Positions 928 to 18,156 of a stretch of 64,000 nt of DNA are shown here, piece by piece. Position 1 is the stretch's first letter, and every line of letters begins with the position of its first letter. Made by a program: the position numbers and the translations under genes. Origin of the DNA: Gammaproteobacteria bacterium (GTDB taxonomy: Bacteria > Pseudomonadota > Gammaproteobacteria > JAJPIJ01). The notes under the pieces were generated by a model, which worked only from the letters and a program-made list of their open reading frames with translations, did not search any database and was not told the origin of the DNA. The stretch is from assembly GCA_021324815.1 (NCBI GenBank), contig JAJPIJ010000023.1:666-64665 (forward strand), in the 5' to 3' direction.

Positions 928-2144
928 GCAAGCAGGGTCTTGAGCGGCAGGCTGATTTCGGCGACGACGCCGCGGCCGGCGGCGCGCTCACGCAGGACCA
1001 GTCTCCCGCCGAGGCGCTTGAGCGCAAGGTGGGCGAGGGGGAGTCCCATGCCCAATCCGTGCGGCTTGGTGGTGACGAAGGCCCGGCCGACGCGCGCCGC
1101 GATCCCCGGCGGCAGCCCGCCGCCTTCGTCGCGAATCAGCACCTTCAGTTCCGATTCATCCCAGCGGCCCTCGATCTCAACGCGGCCCGGCGAGGCGTCG
1201 GCGGCGTTGTGCAGGACGTTCATGATCGCCTGCGACAGCGTGCGATCGGCGATGATGCAGGGCGGCGGCTGCGGACCGCGCAGTTGCACACTGACTTCGG
1301 GGTCGGGACGCAATATCCGCCATTCGTCGACGAGCTGCGCGAGATAACGGTCCACATCCACCCGCCCGCCGCCCAGGGCCTGGGCCTGCCCCGACTGCGC
1401 GCTCATGCGGGAGAGGATGTCCTTGCAGCGGTCGATTTGCCCGCGCAACACGCGCAGGCCATCGACCAGCCCGGGATCGCCCTGCCGCTCCCGCTGCAGG
1501 TCCTTGGCCAGCACGGCCATCGTTGACAGCGGCGTTCCCAGTTCATGGCAGGTGCCGGCCGCGAGCGACCCCAGCGCCAGCCACTGCCTCGCCTCGGCCA
1601 GCTCGCGGTCATGGGCGCGCAGGGTCGCGCCGATGCGGGCGACGAAGTAGGCGACCACCACGGCGCTCAGCAGGAATCCGAACCACATGCCCCACAGGTG
1701 CGGCGAGTAATGATCGTCCTCGTGCACCCAGTGCAGGGTGTGCTGATGCAGGAACATGAGCGCCGTGTAGCAGGCGGCGGCGCAGGCCACCAGCAGCCAG
1801 GTGTAGGCGGGTCGCAGCGTGGCCGCGGCCACGGTGACGGGCAGCAGGAACAGGGAGACGAAGGGGTTCCAGGAGCCGCCGGTGAAATACAGCAGCGCGG
1901 TGAGCGCGCCGATGTCGAGGAACAACTGGCACAGCACCTCGGCTTCCGGGACCGGCCGGCGCGCCGCGACGCCGCGCCAGGAGAACAGCGTCACCGCCGC
2001 CAGCAGCAGCATCACGCCGATGATCGGCGGCCAGGGCAGCGGCGCGTGCAGGAACATATGCGCGGCGATGAGGGCGGCGATTTGCACGCCCATGGCGAAG
2101 GTCCGCAGCAGCAGCAGGTAACGCAGACAAAGACTGGTCAGCAT
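924..2144 (-). CDS. regB: RegB/PrrB-family redox sensor histidine kinase
   Basis: Several TM helices with the GGxxNPF motif (TGGSWNPF), H-box HELGTPL, the DRCKDIL cysteine motif, and N/G boxes (NVLHNAADA, DEGGG, GLGMGL). Overlaps regA by 4 nt. ATG at 2144 was chosen over the longer ORF. Confidence 0.9.
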   Translation of the reverse strand: MLTSLCLRYLLLLRTFAMGVQIAALIAAHMFLHAPLPWPPIIGVMLLLAAVTLFSWRGVAARRPVPEAEVLCQLFLDIGALTALLYFTGGSWNPFVSLFLLPVTVAAATLRPAYTWLLVACAAACYTALMFLHQHTLHWVHEDDHYSPHLWGMWFGFLLSAVVVAYFVARIGATLRAHDRELAEARQWLALGSLAAGTCHELGTPLSTMAVLAKDLQRERQGDPGLVDGLRVLRGQIDRCKDILSRMSAQSGQAQALGGGRVDVDRYLAQLVDEWRILRPDPEVSVQLRGPQPPPCIIADRTLSQAIMNVLHNAADASPGRVEIEGRWDESELKVLIRDEGGGLPPGIAARVGRAFVTTKPHGLGMGLPLAHLALKRLGGRLVLRERAAGRGVVAEISLPLKTLLA

Positions 2145-2175
2145 GAGGAGCGGCCCGGGATCACCGAGAGATTTG

Positions 2176-2184
2176 ATTATATCA
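2176..2184 (-). promoter_or_regulatory. Extended -10 promoter for regB (TG-A-TATAAT)
   Basis: The minus strand reads TGATATAAT about 30 nt upstream of the regB ATG. Confidence 0.6.
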
Positions 2185-2233
2185 AGCCATTGCCGGCCGT
2201 GAGCGGCCTGAATCCCGGCGGTGGCCGGCAAGG

Positions 2234-2250
2234 TGCGACATTTTGCCGCA
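2234..2250. promoter_or_regulatory. RegA/RegR/PrrA binding box
   Basis: TGCGACATTTTGCCGCA; the reverse complement contains GCGGC-AAAAT-GTCGC, matching the RegR-box consensus GCGGC-N5-GTCGC. It lies in the intergenic region next to regBA. Confidence 0.75.
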
Positions 2251-2272
2251 GTCCGGGGGAGGCTGATTTCGC

Positions 2273-2278
2273 TAGACT
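2273..2278 (+). promoter_or_regulatory. Candidate -10 element (TAGACT) for the copper cassette
   Basis: TAnnnT hexamer about 50 nt before ATG 2328 with no recognisable -35. The RegA box abuts the -35 position. Confidence 0.4.
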
Positions 2279-2327
2279 GCGTTTTCACGATGCGACACGC
2301 GCCATTCAGGAAATACAACGGAAAAAA

Positions 2328-3305
2328 ATGCGGACTTCGACGACGATTCAAGGCCCCTTCAAAAAGCTGCTGTTGGTGGGCACGACAATCTGTTGGGTGT
2401 CATACACCGCGATGGCGCAAGCCCATGGATTCGCGGGCAGGCGCTTCTTTCCGGCCACGATAGCCACGGATGATCCGTTCATGAACGATGAAGCCGGGCT
2501 GGTGTTTGGTAACACTTGGGAACCGGACATTGACACCCATACCGACACGACGATCTCAGGCGAATGGGCCAAGACCATCACCCCAACCTTTGGGTTCTCG
2601 ATAGGCAACGCATTTCACCACATCAATCCTAAGGAAGGAAAAGACATAAACGGCTTCGAGAATCTCGATGTCGGAGCCAAGTGGCAGTTTTACACCAACG
2701 ACCCCAACGAGACCATCTTGTCCATCGGCTTGAATGCCGAGGTTGGAGGTACGGGGAGCGCGCATCTCGGTGTTGACCCCTTTTCCACGGTCTCACCCAC
2801 CTTCTTCTTCGGCCAGGGGATGGGATTCCTGCCGGAATCGATGAAAATGTTGAGGCCTTTTGCGGTGACCGGGACCTTGAGCGCCGACATTCCCACGGTG
2901 TCGACGATTGAGAGCACAGGGAAGAAACCGGCCACGAACTTGAGCTGGGGGATCTCGCTGCAATACAATCTCCAGTACCTGCAATCCTTTGTTCGCGACA
3001 TGGGACTGCCGGCGCCCTTCAACCGAATGATCCCGTTGGTCGAATTCCCAATGACGACATGCGTGAATCGAGATTGTGACGGACAAACGACCGGCTTTGT
3101 CGCACCGGGCGTCATTTGGTTTGGGAAGCACACGCAATTCGGTCTGGAGGCCCAGATACCCATCGATGACCGCAGTGGCCATGACGCCGGCATCATGGCC
3201 CAAGTACATTTCTTCATTGACGACATTTTCCCGGATTCCCTGGGCCGACCCTTGATCGGCGCGAAGAAGGCCTATCCAGCGTGGTGGGGCGGCTCCCGCG
3301 AGTAA
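2328..3305 (+). CDS. Uncharacterised secreted protein, predicted outer-membrane beta-barrel with mature N-terminal His
   Basis: Signal peptide ending AQA followed by HGFAGRRFFPATIATDDP. Alternating hydrophobic/aromatic strand-like segments (NLDVGAKWQFY, ILSIGLNAEVG, LSWGISLQYNL, TQFGLEAQIP, MAQVHFFIDD). First gene of the copC-copD operon. Confidence 0.7.
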   Translation: MRTSTTIQGPFKKLLLVGTTICWVSYTAMAQAHGFAGRRFFPATIATDDPFMNDEAGLVFGNTWEPDIDTHTDTTISGEWAKTITPTFGFSIGNAFHHINPKEGKDINGFENLDVGAKWQFYTNDPNETILSIGLNAEVGGTGSAHLGVDPFSTVSPTFFFGQGMGFLPESMKMLRPFAVTGTLSADIPTVSTIESTGKKPATNLSWGISLQYNLQYLQSFVRDMGLPAPFNRMIPLVEFPMTTCVNRDCDGQTTGFVAPGVIWFGKHTQFGLEAQIPIDDRSGHDAGIMAQVHFFIDDIFPDSLGRPLIGAKKAYPAWWGGSRE

Positions 3306-3652
3306 TCACGCTGGCGATCGCGCTGGCTTCGGCGGCCTGGCAACCGAAGACATGGGGCCATGCCTTTCTGGATCATGGCGAACCCAGGGTGGGCGCTGAA
3401 CTGGCGGCATCGCCACAACAAATAGTGCTGTACTTCGATAGCGAACTGGAACCCGCCTTTTCGGGATTGGTCCTGGAAGACGCGGACGGTCATGAGATCA
3501 AGCGAAGCGGGACGCAAAATGATGCCGGCGATCCCACGAGGCTTTCCATGCCGTGTCCTCCGCTCGGTTCCGGTACCTACCGGGTGCGCTGGAGCGTCGT
3601 CGCACGGGACGGGCACCGCACGGAGGGAGATTACACCTTCTCCGTCCACTAG
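3281..3652 (+). CDS. copC: Periplasmic copper-binding protein CopC
   Basis: Signal peptide, then mature N-terminal HAFL, the FDSELEPAFS segment, and C-terminal YRVRWSVVARDGHRTEGDYTFSV with the DGH Cu(II) motif. Confidence 0.92.
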   Translation: MVGRLPRVITLAIALASAAWQPKTWGHAFLDHGEPRVGAELAASPQQIVLYFDSELEPAFSGLVLEDADGHEIKRSGTQNDAGDPTRLSMPCPPLGSGTYRVRWSVVARDGHRTEGDYTFSVH

Positions 3653-3662
3653 GAACCCACAC

Positions 3663-4676
3663 TTGCTCGGTTCGCCTCTCCACCTTCTCCCTTCGTTTTT
3701 TGATCTACTGGCGTTGGGTACGATTTTGGGGGCGTTAAGCATCCGGCTTTGGGTGTTCCCCCGCGCCGGTCGTACGGAAGAGACGGTCGTCTTTGCGAGC
3801 ATCGGCGGCAGATTCACAAGCCTGCTTACGTGGTCGCTCCTTCTTCTCACCGCCACCAGCGTGGCGGTTCTGGTGGTGCGCGCCGCGGAAATAAGCGGTC
3901 AGCCTTATGGCGCCGTATCGCGGGTATTGCCCGCGGTACTGTTCAAAACTCACTATGGGACAATCTGGTTCCTGCGGCTTGCGGCCCTGTTTGTGCTGTG
4001 GGCGGGCGTGTTGGCGATGCGCCGAACCGGCGGCGCCGCCGCGCCCGCGGCAGCCTTTGTCGCCGCCGCGGCCATTGCCTGGACTTACAGCGCAACGGGT
4101 CACGCCAGCGATCAAGGCGACTTCACGATTATTCAAACCATGGACTGGCTGCACCTACTCGCCATCTCGGCATGGGGCGGCGGCCTGCTTGCCGTGACCC
4201 TTGTCATTCGGCCTGCATTGGCGGAAAAGATGAATGAACACCAGGTGAAAAATCTCAGCGGGATTTGCCGGCGGCTGTCCCGGCTCGCCGGCTGCTCGCT
4301 CCTTGTGGTCATCGTTACCGGAAGCTACGGCGCCTGGCGCCATGTTCCCGGCCTTGCCGCGCTTGGGGACACGATTTACGGGCGGGCGCTGAGCGTGAAG
4401 TTGTTTTTCGTTCTCACGATGGTTCTGCTGGGGGCAATCAACCGTTACCTGGTCCTGCCGAAATTGCCTGCATCCGGAGGCGCATCTGCCACCGGTGGCG
4501 GGCAATCAGGCGCGGACCTCTTGCGGCAATTCTTCCGAAGGGTCGGTCAGGAAGCCTTCCTCATGATCCTCGTGCTGGGTTGTGTCACGTTCCTGATTCA
4601 CAGCCCGCCGCCAGGTCCGTTCATGGATATGACGCGTCATCACCCTGCACACATACGGGACGCGGAAGGGCCCTGA
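3663..4676 (+). CDS. copD: Inner-membrane copper transport protein CopD
   Basis: Multi-TM protein with TGHA, DWLHLLAISAWGGGL, SRLAGCSLLVVIVTGSY and YGRALSVKLFFVLTMVLLGAINRY. TTG start at 3663 follows AGGAA, directly after copC. Confidence 0.88.
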   Translation: MLGSPLHLLPSFFDLLALGTILGALSIRLWVFPRAGRTEETVVFASIGGRFTSLLTWSLLLLTATSVAVLVVRAAEISGQPYGAVSRVLPAVLFKTHYGTIWFLRLAALFVLWAGVLAMRRTGGAAAPAAAFVAAAAIAWTYSATGHASDQGDFTIIQTMDWLHLLAISAWGGGLLAVTLVIRPALAEKMNEHQVKNLSGICRRLSRLAGCSLLVVIVTGSYGAWRHVPGLAALGDTIYGRALSVKLFFVLTMVLLGAINRYLVLPKLPASGGASATGGGQSGADLLRQFFRRVGQEAFLMILVLGCVTFLIHSPPPGPFMDMTRHHPAHIRDAEGP

Positions 4677-4689
4677 CCGGCGGCCTGCG

Positions 4690-5253
4690 TTATTTCGGCG
4701 GCGAAGTCGCGATGCGAAGGAGACGGACGGATTTTTTGAACAGCTCGGATTGATGCTTGGCGACGAACGCGGCGATCGTTTTGGCGTCAGCGGCAAGATG
4801 GACCTCCGGCGCGTAGCTGCTGTCATCGGCCCTGCCCGCGATCTCGCCACGCCGCACCGCCGCGCGCGCGGCTTCAGGATCAAGCAGGCTCAATTCAACC
4901 GCGTCGCCCCCGGCCGAGTACCGCAACAAAAGATAACCCTCGCCGGAATCCCCGCCGTGCAGATTCAGATAGCGCACACCCTTCAAAATGGAAGTATGGC
5001 CCTGGTAGTGGGAAACGCGGGTTTGTCCATCGGCGGAGGGCTCGGTCACCGTGATGTTCAGGCTGTGCCGGTCCCGCGCCTCGACGACCACCGTCATGGT
5101 CCGCTCCTCGTCGCGCCAGGTGCCGGGCAGGGCCTTGTCGATCTTCGCCGACGCCACCGGCGTGAGTGGCTGCGGCAGTGTCGCCACGCAACCCGCGAGA
5201 CCAAGAACCGCGAGGAGGGACAGCAGCCGGTTTGTCGTTCGTCGCCGCATCAC
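4690..5253 (-). CDS. Hypothetical lipoprotein
   Basis: Basic N-terminus, hydrophobic stretch and lipobox LAGC; typical codon usage; no recognised domain. Confidence 0.7.
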   Translation of the reverse strand: MMRRRTTNRLLSLLAVLGLAGCVATLPQPLTPVASAKIDKALPGTWRDEERTMTVVVEARDRHSLNITVTEPSADGQTRVSHYQGHTSILKGVRYLNLHGGDSGEGYLLLRYSAGGDAVELSLLDPEAARAAVRRGEIAGRADDSSYAPEVHLAADAKTIAAFVAKHQSELFKKSVRLLRIATSPPK

Positions 5254-5327
5254 GCGTATAATAAACGCAATTCACGGAAATGCGGCAAACATGCTCTGAT
5301 GTTTGCCCGCGGGTGGGAAGAAAACGC

Positions 5328-6533
5328 ATGTCCTTCAGCCTCTCGCAGTTCTACCAGCTCAACCGGCGCATCATCATCTGGATACTGCTGTTCGCCCTCT
5401 TGTGGCTGGGGCGCGATTTCTTCGGCCTCATCTTCATGACCTTCGTGCTGGCCTTCATCGCCGAGCCGCTGGCCGAGCTGGGCCGGCGGCGCCTGCGCCT
5501 GCCGCATGGTCTGTCGCTGTCGGCGGTCTATGTGATGTTCGTCGCGGTCCTGGTGGGGTTCACGCACTTCGTGGTGCCCGAGGTGGTCAGCGAGGCGAAC
5601 CGGCTGGTCGGCAACTTAAGCCAGATCGAGCAGCGTGTCATCCAGACCAAGAACAACCTCGTGCGCGAATACCCGGTGCTGCGCGATTCGCTCTCGGTGT
5701 TCGCCCGCAGCGCCATGGACGAGGAGGCCGCCGCCGCGCTGGATGTGGAGTTGCAACGCGAAAAGGAAAAGCTCGGCGTGACCGAGGCTGATCTCGCCGC
5801 CGACTCCGCCGATCACGCCGGGCCGCCGCCGGGGAGTCCCCTGGCCCGCTACTACGAAAAGAAGGACCGCCTGCTCGTGGACGCCATCATGTCCGAGCAG
5901 ATCAAGCGCATCGGCAACGAGGCGCCGCGCGCCATCCACGCGCTCTACAGCGTCACCGCCACCCTGCTGCTGGCGCTCTTGTTCAGTTTCCTTATCCTGG
6001 TGGACATCGCGCGCCTGCGCCGGCAGGTGCAGGACCTCGGCGTCTCGCGCGTGAAGGACATCTACGCGGAGGCGGCGCAGCCGGTGGTGCGGTTCGCCTA
6101 TCTGCTGGGCCGCGCCATCCAGGCGCAGACCGCCATCGCCGCGGTGTACACGGTGCTCACGCTCGCGGGCCTGCTGCTGCTCAAGATTCCGTCGGTGACC
6201 ATGCTGTCGCTGGTGGTGTTTGTGACCAGCTTCATCCCGGTGCTCGGCGTGTTCATCTCCGCGGTGCCGATCATCCTCGTGGCGCTGAACGCGGGCGGGC
6301 TCACCCTGGCGCTGGCCTCGGTGGGCCTCATCATCGTCATCCACATCCTCGGCACCTACCTCATCAATCCCTGGATCTACGGCCGCCACCTGAATTTGAA
6401 TCCGGTGCTGACGCTCATCATCCTGTTCGTGGCCTATCACGCCTTCGGCCTGTGGGGCATGATCCTGGCCGTGCCGGTGGCGCGCTATTTCATCTACGAC
6501 GTGCTGGGCCTGCCGTTGCGCGACAGCGCGTGA
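5328..6533 (+). CDS. AI-2E (PerM/UPF0118) family transporter
   Basis: N-terminal TM block, then the C-terminal family pattern FIPVLGVFIS...YLINPWIYGRHLNLNPVLTLIILFVAYHAFGLWGMILAVP. Confidence 0.85.
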   Translation: MSFSLSQFYQLNRRIIIWILLFALLWLGRDFFGLIFMTFVLAFIAEPLAELGRRRLRLPHGLSLSAVYVMFVAVLVGFTHFVVPEVVSEANRLVGNLSQIEQRVIQTKNNLVREYPVLRDSLSVFARSAMDEEAAAALDVELQREKEKLGVTEADLAADSADHAGPPPGSPLARYYEKKDRLLVDAIMSEQIKRIGNEAPRAIHALYSVTATLLLALLFSFLILVDIARLRRQVQDLGVSRVKDIYAEAAQPVVRFAYLLGRAIQAQTAIAAVYTVLTLAGLLLLKIPSVTMLSLVVFVTSFIPVLGVFISAVPIILVALNAGGLTLALASVGLIIVIHILGTYLINPWIYGRHLNLNPVLTLIILFVAYHAFGLWGMILAVPVARYFIYDVLGLPLRDSA

Positions 6534-6582: not shown

Positions 6583-6670
6583 TGGTGCCGGGAGTGGGGG
6601 TCGAACCCACATGAGGGGTAACCTCACTGGATTTTGAGTCCAGCGCGTCTGCCAATTCCGCCATCCCGGC
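6583..6670 (-). tRNA. tRNA-Leu (CAA)
   Basis: The minus strand reads GCCGGGA...CTGGA-CTCAAAA-TCCAG...GTGGGTTCGACCCCCAC-TCCCGGC-A-CCA, with a long variable arm and encoded CCA. Confidence 0.95.
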
Positions 6671-15902: not shown

Positions 15903-16718
15903 ATGCAAAACAACAATAAAAACAGCAGTGAGCCGCTGGTCAGGATCCGCGGGCTGATCTTCAAGCGCGGCCAGCGCGCCATCTTCGACAACGTCGACAT
16001 CGACATCCGCCGCGGCGGCATCACCGCCATCATGGGACCGTCCGGCTGCGGCAAGACCACGCTGCTGCGCCTGATCGGCGGCCAGTTGAAGCCGCTGTCG
16101 GGCAGCGTACGGGTCGACGGCATCGAGGTCCCCAGGCTCTCGCGGCGGGCGCTGATGAACCTGCGCAAGCGCATGGGCATGCTGTTCCAGAGCGGCGCCC
16201 TGCTGACCGATCTGAACGTGTTTGAGAACGTCGCCTTCCCGCTGCGCGAGCACACGCCGCTGCCGGAGGCCGTCATCCGCGATCTGGTGCTGATGAAGCT
16301 GGAGGCGGTCGGCCTGCGCGGCGCCCGCGGCCTCATGGCGGCGCAACTGTCGGGCGGCATGGCCCGGCGGGTGGCGCTGGCGCGCGCCATCGCGCTCGAG
16401 CCCATGATGATCATGTACGACGAGCCCTTCACCGGCCAGGACCCGATCTCGATGGGCGTGCTCGTGCGCCTGATCAAGTCCCTGAACGAGGCCCTGGGGA
16501 TCACCAGCGTCATCGTGTCCCACGACATCCAGGAAACCGTGTCCATCGCCGATTACGTTTACATCCTGTCGGCGGGCAAGATCGTGGGGCAGGGCACGCC
16601 CGCGGAGCTGGCCGGCACGAATTCGCAATGGGTGCGACAGTTCATGCAGGCGCTGTCCGACGGACCGGTGCGGTTCCACTATCCCGCCCCCTCCATCACC
16701 GAGGATCTGCAACTGTGA
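15903..16718 (+). CDS. mlaF: Phospholipid ABC transporter ATP-binding protein MlaF
   Basis: Walker A GPSGCGKT, signature [14 protein letters not shown], and [11 protein letters not shown]. Heads the mla operon. Confidence 0.93.
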
Positions 16719-17506
16719 CCGCGGCCTTTCTGGGCATGCTGCAGCGGCTGGGCCGGTGGGGATTGTCGGCCCTGGAACGGCTGGGACGGGGGACCGTCTT
16801 CTTTGTCTATGTGATCGGCGGGTTCCCGGAAATCCTGCGTCGGGGGCGGTTGATCGTGGCGCAGATCTACGCCGTGGGCGCGCTGTCGCTGGTCATCATC
16901 GTGGTGTCGGGCATCTTCGTCGGCATGGTGCTGGGCTTGCAGGGCTATAATACGCTGGTCGATTTCGGCGCGTCCGAATCGCTCGGCGAACTGGTGGCCC
17001 TGTCGCTGGTCCGCGAGCTGGGGCCGGTGGTGACGGCGCTGCTGTACGCCGGTCGCGCCGGGTCGGCGCTCACCGCCGAAATCGGCCTGATGAAAACCAC
17101 CGAGCAATTGTCGGCGATGGAGATGATGGCCGTGGATCCGCTGCACCGGGTCATCGCGCCGCGGCTGCTGGCGGGAATCATTTCCATGCCGCTCCTGGCC
17201 GCGATTTTCAGCATCCTGGGCGTGTACGGCGGCCACTTTGTCGGCGTCACCCTGTTGGGGGTGGACGACGGCGCCTACTGGTCGCAGATGCAGGCGACGG
17301 TGGACTGGTACGACGACATTTTGAACGGCGTCATCAAGAGCTTCGTGTTCGGCATCGTGGTGACGTGGATCGCCCTGTTCGAGGGTTACGACACGGCGCC
17401 CACCTCGGAGGGGATCAGCCGCGCGACGACGCGGACGGTGGTGAACTCGAGCCTCGCCGTGCTGGGGCTGGATTTTGTGTTGACGGCTTTGATGTTCAAC
17501 AAGTAG
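16715..17506 (+). CDS. mlaE: Phospholipid ABC transporter permease MlaE
   Basis: [31 protein letters not shown] and [10 protein letters not shown] motifs. GTG start overlaps the mlaF stop. Confidence 0.95.
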
Positions 17507-17610
17507 CGGGGAGCGCCGTGATATCCCCCGCCGATGAGCTGATGCCGCGCTGCGGCCGGCTGCGGATCTTTTTGGCGTTCTGCGGATGGACGTGATAGAG
17601 GAGCGGGAAG

Positions 17611-18084
17611 ATGACTGAGTCAAGAACTCTCGAAATCGTGGTGGGCGGGTTCATCTTCGCCGGGCTGCTGGCGCTGCTCATGCTGTCGATGAAGGTCAGC
17701 AACCTGACGGATATCGGCGGCACGGACGGCTACGAAATCAAGGCCAAATTCGACAACATCGGCGGTCTTAAGGTCCGCTCGCCGGTCAAGATGGCGGGGG
17801 TGAAAATCGGCCAGGTGTCGGCGATCGATTTCGACCCCACCAGCTACCGGGCGGAGGTCACGCTCAAAATCGACCGCCGTTACGACAAGATCCCGACGGA
17901 TACCTCGGCCAAGATCTTCACGGCGGGTCTCCTGGGCGAGCAATACATCAGTCTCGAGGCCGGCGGCGACGACCACTACCTGAAACCCGGGGGGGAAATC
18001 ACGCTGGTGTCCAATGCCGTGGTGCTGGAGCAAGTCATCGGCCAATTCCTTTATAATAAGGCCGCCGGGAACGACAAGAAGTGA
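17611..18084 (+). CDS. mlaD: MCE-domain protein MlaD
   Basis: FDNIGGLKVRSPVKMAGVKIG and TAGLLGEQYI motifs. Confidence 0.95.
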   Translation: MTESRTLEIVVGGFIFAGLLALLMLSMKVSNLTDIGGTDGYEIKAKFDNIGGLKVRSPVKMAGVKIGQVSAIDFDPTSYRAEVTLKIDRRYDKIPTDTSAKIFTAGLLGEQYISLEAGGDDHYLKPGGEITLVSNAVVLEQVIGQFLYNKAAGNDKK

Positions 18085-18156
18085 TGGCGGCCCCGGGGGT
18101 CCTGGTGAGGGTTAAAAGACGGTGTCAAGAAAGCCATAACGGGCGGAGAAGAGATT

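Follow-up and report, generated by a model that had tools for sequence, protein, structure and literature searches.

We consider a three-gene operon near the start of a 64,000-nt stretch of DNA from a member of the Gammaproteobacteria (contig JAJPIJ010000023.1). "The window" below means this whole stretch, and coordinates are window positions unless another contig or locus is named. The first gene (2328..3305, + strand, stop codon included) encodes a 325-aa precursor, P0001, which we call the barrel protein. Residues carry precursor numbering, and H33 is residue 1 of the mature protein (His1). The 3' end of the barrel gene overlaps the next gene by 25 nt. That gene is copC (3281..3652, +; GTG start), which encodes a periplasmic Cu(II)-binding protein (PF04234, 77 bits) with its own mature His1 (HAFLDH) and a D-G-H motif; NF033814 and NF007636 match it below their cut-offs. 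The third is copD (3663..4676, +), for an inner-membrane protein (PF05425, 60 bits; NF033808, 116 bits, below cut-off), with a probable TTG start at 3663, 11 nt past the copC stop. The operon consists of these three genes only. It holds no multicopper oxidase gene, which agrees with a role in uptake.

The barrel precursor begins MRTSTTIQGPFKKLLLVGTTICWVSYTAMAQA|HGFAGRRFFPATIATDDPFMNDE... (translation of 2328-3305), with the n, h and c regions of a signal peptide and Ala at -3 and -1. Its Sec signal peptide, residues 1-32 (2328..2423, +), is MRTSTTIQGPFKK-LLLVGTTICWVSYTAMA-QA; it ends in AMAQA and runs into the cleavage motif A-Q-A|H. A first-pass annotation, made from the letters alone, had predicted a signal peptidase I site here that would expose a histidine. 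The motif is present, the signal peptide is typical and the arrangement is kept across relatives. Judging by motif and conservation, the mature protein would begin H33-GFAGRRFFPATIATDDPFMNDE. The likeness to the adjacent CopC that was claimed at the same time is also real, since CopC (..KTWG|HAFLDH) has a like design. The mature protein opens with a conserved arm, H33-GFAGRRFFPATIATDDPFMND-E55 (2424..2492, +; alignment A1 and mature model). In A1, an alignment of 36 sequences, H33, G34, G37, R39, F40, P42, T44, D49, P50, D54 and E55 are invariant. The last four fall in T47-D-D-P-F-M-N-D-E55, the acidic segment to which attention had already been drawn.

Three other features in the earlier description exist in this protein but say less about the family than was supposed. 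The Cys pair C245-VNRD-C250 (3060..3077, +) lies in the loop between strands 9 and 10. Among 203 relatives 84 have both Cys and 2 have a single one, and this both-or-neither pattern makes a disulfide probable, but it is an optional loop feature and not a hallmark. The mature protein has 8 Met and 8 His, as had been remarked, but these counts are unremarkable and the only conserved ones are H33 and H294. The missing C-terminal Phe is true of this protein, which ends ..WWGGSRE, but it is a local matter due to a 15-residue extension (..GAKKAYPAWWGGSRE) that most relatives lack; they terminate 0-4 residues past GRP[LI]F. The extension (3261-3305, ..AKKAYPAWWGGSRE) is common to the closest homologues P0002, P0004, P0005 and P0009. 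It overlaps the copC start, and this 25-nt overlap makes translational coupling possible.

His1 is the residue on which the first-pass annotation staked its case, and its conservation bears that out. It is invariant in alignment A1 and in a second alignment, A2, as are H294, D298 and D299. A mature N-terminal His after an AxA-type cleavage site is found in 86 of 87 loci. Where the motif is present, position -1 is A, G or S (85/85) and position -3 is A, S, V or T (83/85). The AQA|H motif and this conservation predict His as mature residue 1, the first trait of histidine-brace or N-terminal-His Cu(II) proteins (CopC C0-1, YcnI, LPMO type). When distant sequences are included, 185 of 203 full-length relatives have His1 and 18 do not.

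The second argument is the company this gene keeps. In 84 of the 87 loci the next gene downstream is copC, on the same strand and often overlapping the barrel gene, and copD was found in at least 66 of the 87. The copC count comes from a single-sequence phmmer run, as does that for copD from a single-sequence search; elsewhere CopC matches were counted only if they extended well beyond the barrel stop. The three exceptions are a locus without downstream sequence, one with 882 nt of it, and one that goes straight to copD. Five divergent homologues in long contigs all show barrel-copC(-copD) with unrelated flanks. This adjacency is not due to chance, because the 84/87 loci are spread over more than 10 phyla and differ in their flanks, and the two genes often overlap. 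An even sample of the window's phylum gives the same picture: 11 of 401 genomes (~3%) carry the gene, all 11 with His1, and copC is next in every locus with room for it, bar one. The partner CopCs keep their own His1 in 81/84, Asp in 80/84 and His in 80/84. In CopC proteins of the Cu(II)-only class these three residues form the metal site.

Relatives that lack His1 also lack copC. Five were inspected, and copC is absent in 4 of the 4 informative ones; the contig of P0138 is too short to judge. P0126 is followed by a spermidine synthase gene, P0154 is flanked by a sigma-54 two-component pair and RND/OEP genes, P0163 is followed by a 115-aa non-CopC ORF (open reading frame), and P0200 is followed by an MFS transporter gene. 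Two divergent subtypes that have His1 keep copC. P0127 (HAVVGDRVFP) sits in the order DUF2946-barrel-CopC, and the ORF after P0128 (HCFVG..DDPC) starts ..AHA|HAHLDHSSP. A functional tie between CopC and a barrel protein with a conserved mature His1 is strongly supported.

If His1 binds Cu(II) it should have partners, and the alignments offer some. His1-less sequences were compared with His1-bearing ones matched for divergence (n=40). Asp299 is the column most strongly lost along with His1, at 0.85 in sequences with His1 against 0.11 in those without, and V222, D49, D224, D298 and E55 trail it at a distance. On a tree built without the tested columns the His1 state changes at least 8 times, and the supported branches hold only 3 contrasts; Asp299 tracks His1 in about 2 of these 3 and runs opposite in none. 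Asp299 is therefore the leading but unproven candidate partner, the raw column contrast being suggestive only. It belongs to H294-FFI-D298-D299 (3207..3224, +), at the predicted periplasmic end of the last strand. Further candidate ligands are Asp49, Asp298, Glu55 and, in many members, His294. Another clue comes from residues 34 and 51, which covary: G/F occurs 141 times, A/G 15 and C/C 6, and a lone Cys never. The covariation means that mature residue 2 contacts the residue after the invariant D-P and that the arm folds back, which would place His1 beside the invariant DDP motif. In the C/C members the Cys at mature positions 2 and 19, always paired, form a probable disulfide stapling the N-terminal arm. 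This H-C plus DDP-C subfamily comprises P0128, P0133, P0134, P0135, P0151 and P0191, with loci L088 and L101, and includes a copy on a Methylocystis rosea plasmid.

The first-pass annotation read amphipathic strand patterns in the body of the protein and proposed a barrel. Both AlphaFold2 models agree, each with 12 long beta-strands. The precursor model has pLDDT 84.7 (36-sequence alignment); the mature-form model has pLDDT 90.9 and pTM 0.86 (92 sequences). In the latter the first 20 mature residues have pLDDT 85, hence this part is ordered, and a 22-residue arm precedes strand 1. The twelve predicted transmembrane strands span residues 55-296 (2490..3215, +), as judged by DSSP on both models, Foldseek and alignment indels. 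Foldseek against the PDB gives probability 1.0 to 12-stranded outer-membrane barrels: FapF (5o68 and related, E 5e-9, TM up to 0.59), the COG4313 channel Pput2725 (4rl8, E 4e-6, TM 0.54) and NanC (2wjq, E 4.4e-6, TM 0.51). OmpG, autotransporter beta-domains and intimin come next. A signal peptide, an even number of strands (12) and occurrence in diderms are what one expects of outer-membrane barrels in general. The protein is most likely an outer-membrane beta-barrel, its location being predicted from these features. Its size and strand count fit the TonB-independent design that had been proposed for it. Two computational outcomes had been named that would have told against the first-pass annotation, a fold other than a barrel and a His1 that is not kept in homologues, and neither was found.

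The topology can be read from the 12 strands and the usual periplasmic termini, with the segments between strands sorted by conservation. On the predicted extracellular side are the variable, indel-rich segments 65-71, 190-203 and 246-253, the last holding the optional disulfide. On the predicted periplasmic side are the most conserved non-strand segments, namely the arm 33-55, the turn 165-177, the turn 214-233 (YNLQYLQSFV.D.GL..PFNR) and the tail (H294-FFIDD-IFP..LGRP). Outer-membrane proteins seldom have long, conserved turns on the periplasmic side. The conservation pattern points to a functional surface that looks into the periplasm, the compartment of CopC. By a crude estimate from strand parity, the lumen is lined by 8 acidic residues, 1 basic residue and 2 His. 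Such a net acidic lumen is compatible with a cation path, and is weak evidence for one.

The family has no name. Neither Pfam-A nor NCBIfam profiles match the barrel protein and its RefSeq relatives are called 'hypothetical protein', in keeping with the earlier description of it as uncharacterised. PDB sequence searches with the single sequence and with a profile found no match. Among 5.8 billion proteins there are 1428 homologues; all named ones are a 'hypothetical protein' and none has a precomputed Pfam domain. An exhaustive profile search covering 1.84 billion cluster representatives (clusters at 50% identity) gave 2377 clusters at E <= 1e-3, of which 399 reach E <= 1e-30. When 185,579 species were scanned, each through one genome, at least 492 genomes were found to encode a relative. 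The best 80 of these come from Burkholderiales, Casimicrobiaceae, Nitrospirota, Thermodesulfovibrionales, Verrucomicrobiota (Chthoniobacterales, Udaeobacter), Thermodesulfobacteriota, Myxococcota, Zetaproteobacteria, Alpha- and Gammaproteobacteria, Dadabacteria, Ignavibacteriales, Spirochaetia, Methylomirabilota and Rokubacteria. The relatives listed are all from diderm phyla, and the family is also found in methanotrophs, Nitrobacter, Burkholderiaceae and soil Verrucomicrobiota. In isolates annotated by PGAP (Methylocystis rosea pGW6_1, Nitrobacter hamburgensis X14 plasmid 2 and Paraburkholderia atlantica pBC201) a 'hypothetical protein' stands immediately 5' of a 'CopC family protein' and a 'CopD family protein'. 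We found no description of the family in the published literature. Neither the survey of CopD neighbourhoods (PMC11923076) nor that of DUF2946/CruR (PMC9426467) mentions it. These surveys could not see it, because they list only Pfam-labelled partners (PMC11923076, PMC9426467).

One copy in the family has decayed. In L106 (G256:C13), positions 1291-1986 hold a signal peptide and HGFVGQRFFPATIATDDPFVADELSL, then unrelated sequence, as in a truncated remnant of a paralogue. This copy is probably a pseudogene remnant; the same genome holds two intact barrel-copC-copD loci.

Upstream ORFs bear on the direction of transport. In 20 of 115 loci the barrel gene is preceded, at a distance of 59-249 nt and on the same strand, by a small CruR/DUF2946-like ORF. 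These ORFs have a CxxC, then 30-65 residues, then R[A/G]PP at the C-terminus. Eight were tested against Pfam DUF2946: two pass the cut-off and two are sub-threshold. PGAP annotates one as DUF2946 in Paraburkholderia. The loci with such an ORF include L001, L003, L008, L024, L029, L036, L037, L044, L065, L075, L085, L088, L090, L101, L102, L104, L110 and L112. Leaders of this type are probably under-annotated, because the public gene call in L001 sits on the opposite strand. DUF2946/CruR is a copper-sensing upstream ORF; copper leads to Rho-dependent termination, so that an acquisition operon is expressed only under scarcity (PMC9426467). By analogy, the CruR-like ORFs point to copper acquisition over resistance. 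A different arrangement is seen in L109 (2847-3194), where a His1-less member is followed by an overlapping 115-aa ORF ending ..QTRAPPAL, a RAPP-type, arrest-like C-terminus, with CxxC absent.

The intergenic region 2145..2327 is shared with a divergent sensor-kinase gene, and from the gene layout the operon promoter is presumed to lie here. A promoter consensus scan of 2050-4900 found no promoter-like site in 2145-2327; it gave one promoter-like and two terminator-like sites, all inside genes and no more than chance. The divergent genes encode a sensor histidine kinase (HisKA, HATPase_c and a PilS-like region of six transmembrane segments; within the 924-2351 ORF, - strand) and a response regulator with a Fis-type helix-turn-helix by Pfam (397-927, -). 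Such a two-component pair beside the barrel operon was not seen in homologous loci whose flanks were inspected. Downstream are a small lipoprotein-like ORF (4690-5253, -), a membrane-protein ORF (5280-6533) and, about 2 kb past the cassette, tRNA-Leu(CAA) (6583-6670, -). Over the barrel gene and copC (2001-3500) G+C is 0.57, whereas the flanks have 0.65-0.70 and the genome as a whole 0.644. Relatives are often plasmid-borne and patchily distributed (the same 11/401 genomes). The low G+C, plasmid carriage and patchy spread argue for lateral acquisition, and the barrel-copC cassette has likely been transferred this way. The assembly is 2.37 Mb and 98% complete. Outside the window, contig C26 carries at 16020-18116 a second copC (HAIVVESTP...) with a CopD-like ORF of about 555 aa and no barrel gene upstream.

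We lean somewhat toward the following scenario. The barrel protein, acting in the outer membrane without TonB, would capture Cu(II) at a site made of His1 and carboxylates and feed CopC, then CopD. It would be exported by Sec as the product of the first gene of a barrel-copC-copD operon, with cleavage leaving His as residue 1. Copper would enter or be captured at the barrel and then be bound by His1, through its free amine and its imidazole, together with nearby carboxylates, Asp299 being the best candidate. The conserved arm would carry this site, either at the mouth that opens to the periplasm or in the lower lumen. Ligand exchange would then move Cu(II) onto the His1/Asp/His site of CopC in the periplasm, and its passage through the inner membrane would fall to CopD. 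We infer the periplasmic placement of the His1 site, the binding of copper and selectivity for it, an open pore, the direction of transport and the hand-off. By analogy with known proteins it is plausible that His1 binds Cu(II), that the pore conducts copper and that CopC receives it. The background is favorable: CopCD, YcnJ and YebZ import copper (PMC11923076, PMC12362106), and in B. subtilis YcnI, a His1 protein, and a CopC domain exchange Cu(II) with each other (PMC12362106). The earlier idea that the arm acts as a plug is also plausible, as it fits the lumen-folded arm of COG4313 (PMC4493636). The boldest version, that this is the first N-terminal-His Cu(II) site in an outer-membrane barrel and part of a three-tier relay (barrel His1 to CopC His1 to CopD) that is TonB-independent and CruR-switched in some lineages, is more tentative, and we hold it with less than even confidence.

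Several observations weigh against this scenario. The window itself has no CruR upstream ORF and has the two-component pair upstream instead. The locus was found only in soil and mine metagenome DNA runs and in no RNA run. The sample of informative His1-less relatives is small (n = 4). The tree-corrected coupling of His1 and Asp299 is not significant, 3 contrasts being underpowered. H294 barely differs between divergence-matched sequences with His1 (0.55) and those without (0.33); with only 55% of divergent His1-bearing members keeping it, its case as an obligatory second ligand is weakened. Some loci lie in resistance-type islands, as in Nitrobacter, where the neighbor is a Cus-type RND system. 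In L117 (G283:C9, 4153-7809) a divergent member with His1, HGIAGNRFFPGT, lies between two cation-diffusion-facilitator (CDF) genes, with an RND pump and a two-component system adjoining and copC absent. His1 without copC between CDF genes means that His1 need not be copper-specific. The wider superfamily may handle other cations, or may work in export or efflux.

The alternative that survives best is that the barrel is a membrane anchor and not a channel. The protein would then be a periplasm-facing Cu(II) buffer or chaperone that exchanges with CopC, a diderm counterpart of YcnI that stores copper or limits its supply to CopD. The conserved surface is periplasmic (the N-terminal arm, the turns 165-177 and 214-233 and the C-terminal tail), and by analogy with COG4313 the arm probably fills the lumen (PMC4493636). 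The YcnI His1 site does swap Cu(II) with a CopC domain (PMC12362106), and the tightest partner of the barrel gene is copC (84/87 loci), not copD (66/87). However, a 12-stranded barrel is a costly anchor where a lipoprotein would suffice. The rough estimate of a net acidic lumen (8 acidic versus 1 basic) is more expected of a cation path, and PcoB, which is 12-stranded and partly obstructed, still conducts copper (PMC9210255). The genome also offers no other outer-membrane copper entry route of the CopB kind, as PF05275 has no match anywhere in it. We consider the anchor unlikely.

A role in copper resistance, the historical one of CopB, is less probable still. Here the barrel would be an outer-membrane exit or would sequester copper with CopC. 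The Nitrobacter hamburgensis plasmid 2 locus adjoins an RND efflux system and copper-binding proteins, multicopper oxidases occur near the L002 and L090 loci, and the cassette is often on plasmids. The divergent member that has a CDF efflux gene on either side and adjoins an RND pump, and the His1-less member next to RND and OEP genes, can be read in the same way. Against this, the operon lacks the multicopper oxidase gene copA and nothing matches PF05275. CruR-like ORFs, which act as an off-switch under copper, head 20/115 loci (PMC9426467), and the partner CopCs are of the His1/Asp/His Cu(II) type. Published cases in which copCD alone gives copper uptake and hypersensitivity are cited in PMC12362106 and PMC11923076. 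We argue that resistance is improbable here.

A general channel for small or hydrophobic solutes (the COG4313/FapF/NanC class), with copC adjacency meaningless and His1 structural or for another metal, is very improbable: those channels are the best fold matches, 2 of 36 members have faint PF13557 matches and His1-less relatives sit beside unrelated genes (spermidine synthase, MFS transporter), but chance cannot explain copC in 84/87 loci across more than 10 phyla, His1 loss accompanies copC loss and the profile-profile probability against PF13557 is 1.5%.

The route of copper through the outer membrane to CopC and CopD is a recognized gap in knowledge, and the barrel protein is the best candidate for the missing step. 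It would be a new, unnamed family in a known type of role, the outer-membrane copper entry component of a CopCD system. If confirmed it would be a third class of outer-membrane copper entry, besides PcoB/CopB and the TonB-dependent receptors. It would then merit a family name and a profile, which would help genome annotation and work on nitrifiers and methanotrophs that are short of copper. The relay, if true, occurs in hundreds of species, among them nitrifiers, methanotrophs and Verrucomicrobiota that are abundant in soil. The tie to copC is near-absolute, and the invariant His1 makes the mechanism directly testable.

It remains to compare the barrel protein with known systems. The TonB-dependent receptors OprC, PcuB, BfrG and TccA bring copper across the outer membrane, as is proposed for the barrel protein, and belong to copper-starvation operons (PMC9426467; bioRxiv 10.1101/2025.09.05.674415). 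Those operons can include CopC/CopD-like and PCuAC proteins and are often headed by DUF2946/CruR (PMC9426467; bioRxiv 10.1101/2025.09.05.674415). However, such receptors are 22-stranded proteins of about 700 aa with a plug domain and need TonB-ExbBD energy, whereas the barrel protein has 293 mature residues and 12 strands and lacks both plug domain and TonB box. Size, strand count and the lack of a TonB_dep_Rec Pfam match rule out membership. PcuB of the Bradyrhizobium pcuABCDE operon is such a receptor and does not belong to the barrel family.

FapF (5o65, 5o67, 5o68) is the best fold match and a 12-stranded barrel. Identity is only 8-11%, there is no fap operon here and FapF exports unfolded polypeptide, so only the barrel geometry is common to the two. 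The COG4313 channels are a useful precedent. They are monomeric 12-stranded barrels, and the stretch of about 14 N-terminal residues that precedes strand 1 enters the lumen from the periplasm and folds there (PMC4493636). The strand number of Pput2725 (4rl8) is the same, and the 22-residue arm of the barrel protein is comparable. COG4313 channels differ in being linked to the uptake of hydrophobic molecules, in lacking an N-terminal His and in having no link to copC. Homology to COG4313/PF13557 was rejected: P0001 has no PF13557 match, 2 of 36 members match below threshold (best E 0.004), and hhalign against nine PF13557 proteins from related genomes gave that same probability of 1.5%. The likeness is one of architecture and not of demonstrable homology.

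PcoB (7PGE), an outer-membrane barrel of 12 strands, is likewise encoded beside copC and copD and occupies the corresponding place in the envelope pathway. Its electronegative funnel narrows toward the periplasm, and the barrel is partly obstructed but is reported to let copper in (PMC9210255). Its N-terminus is long, disordered and rich in Met and His, whereas the barrel protein has a short ordered arm led by His1, and 7PGE is not among its top 50 fold matches. PcoB travels with the multicopper oxidase PcoA, which the window operon lacks. A Cu-oxidase gene adjoins the barrel gene in 0 of 8 loci with precomputed Pfam calls, the nearest being about 3.4 kb downstream in L002. PF05275 does not match the window protein at E <= 0.1 or any of 36 members at E <= 10. 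With no PF05275 match in protein, family or genome, membership in PcoB/CopB is rejected.

YcnI (DUF1775, Bacillus subtilis) is the nearest parallel for the metal site. It is extracytoplasmic and attached to the membrane, its mature N-terminal His binds Cu(II) and it is encoded with a CopC-CopD importer (PMC12362106). It differs in being a soluble beta-sandwich on a single transmembrane helix in a monoderm, with no relationship in sequence or fold. By analogy with these systems, the barrel protein would come closest to PcoB in where it works and to YcnI in its chemistry.

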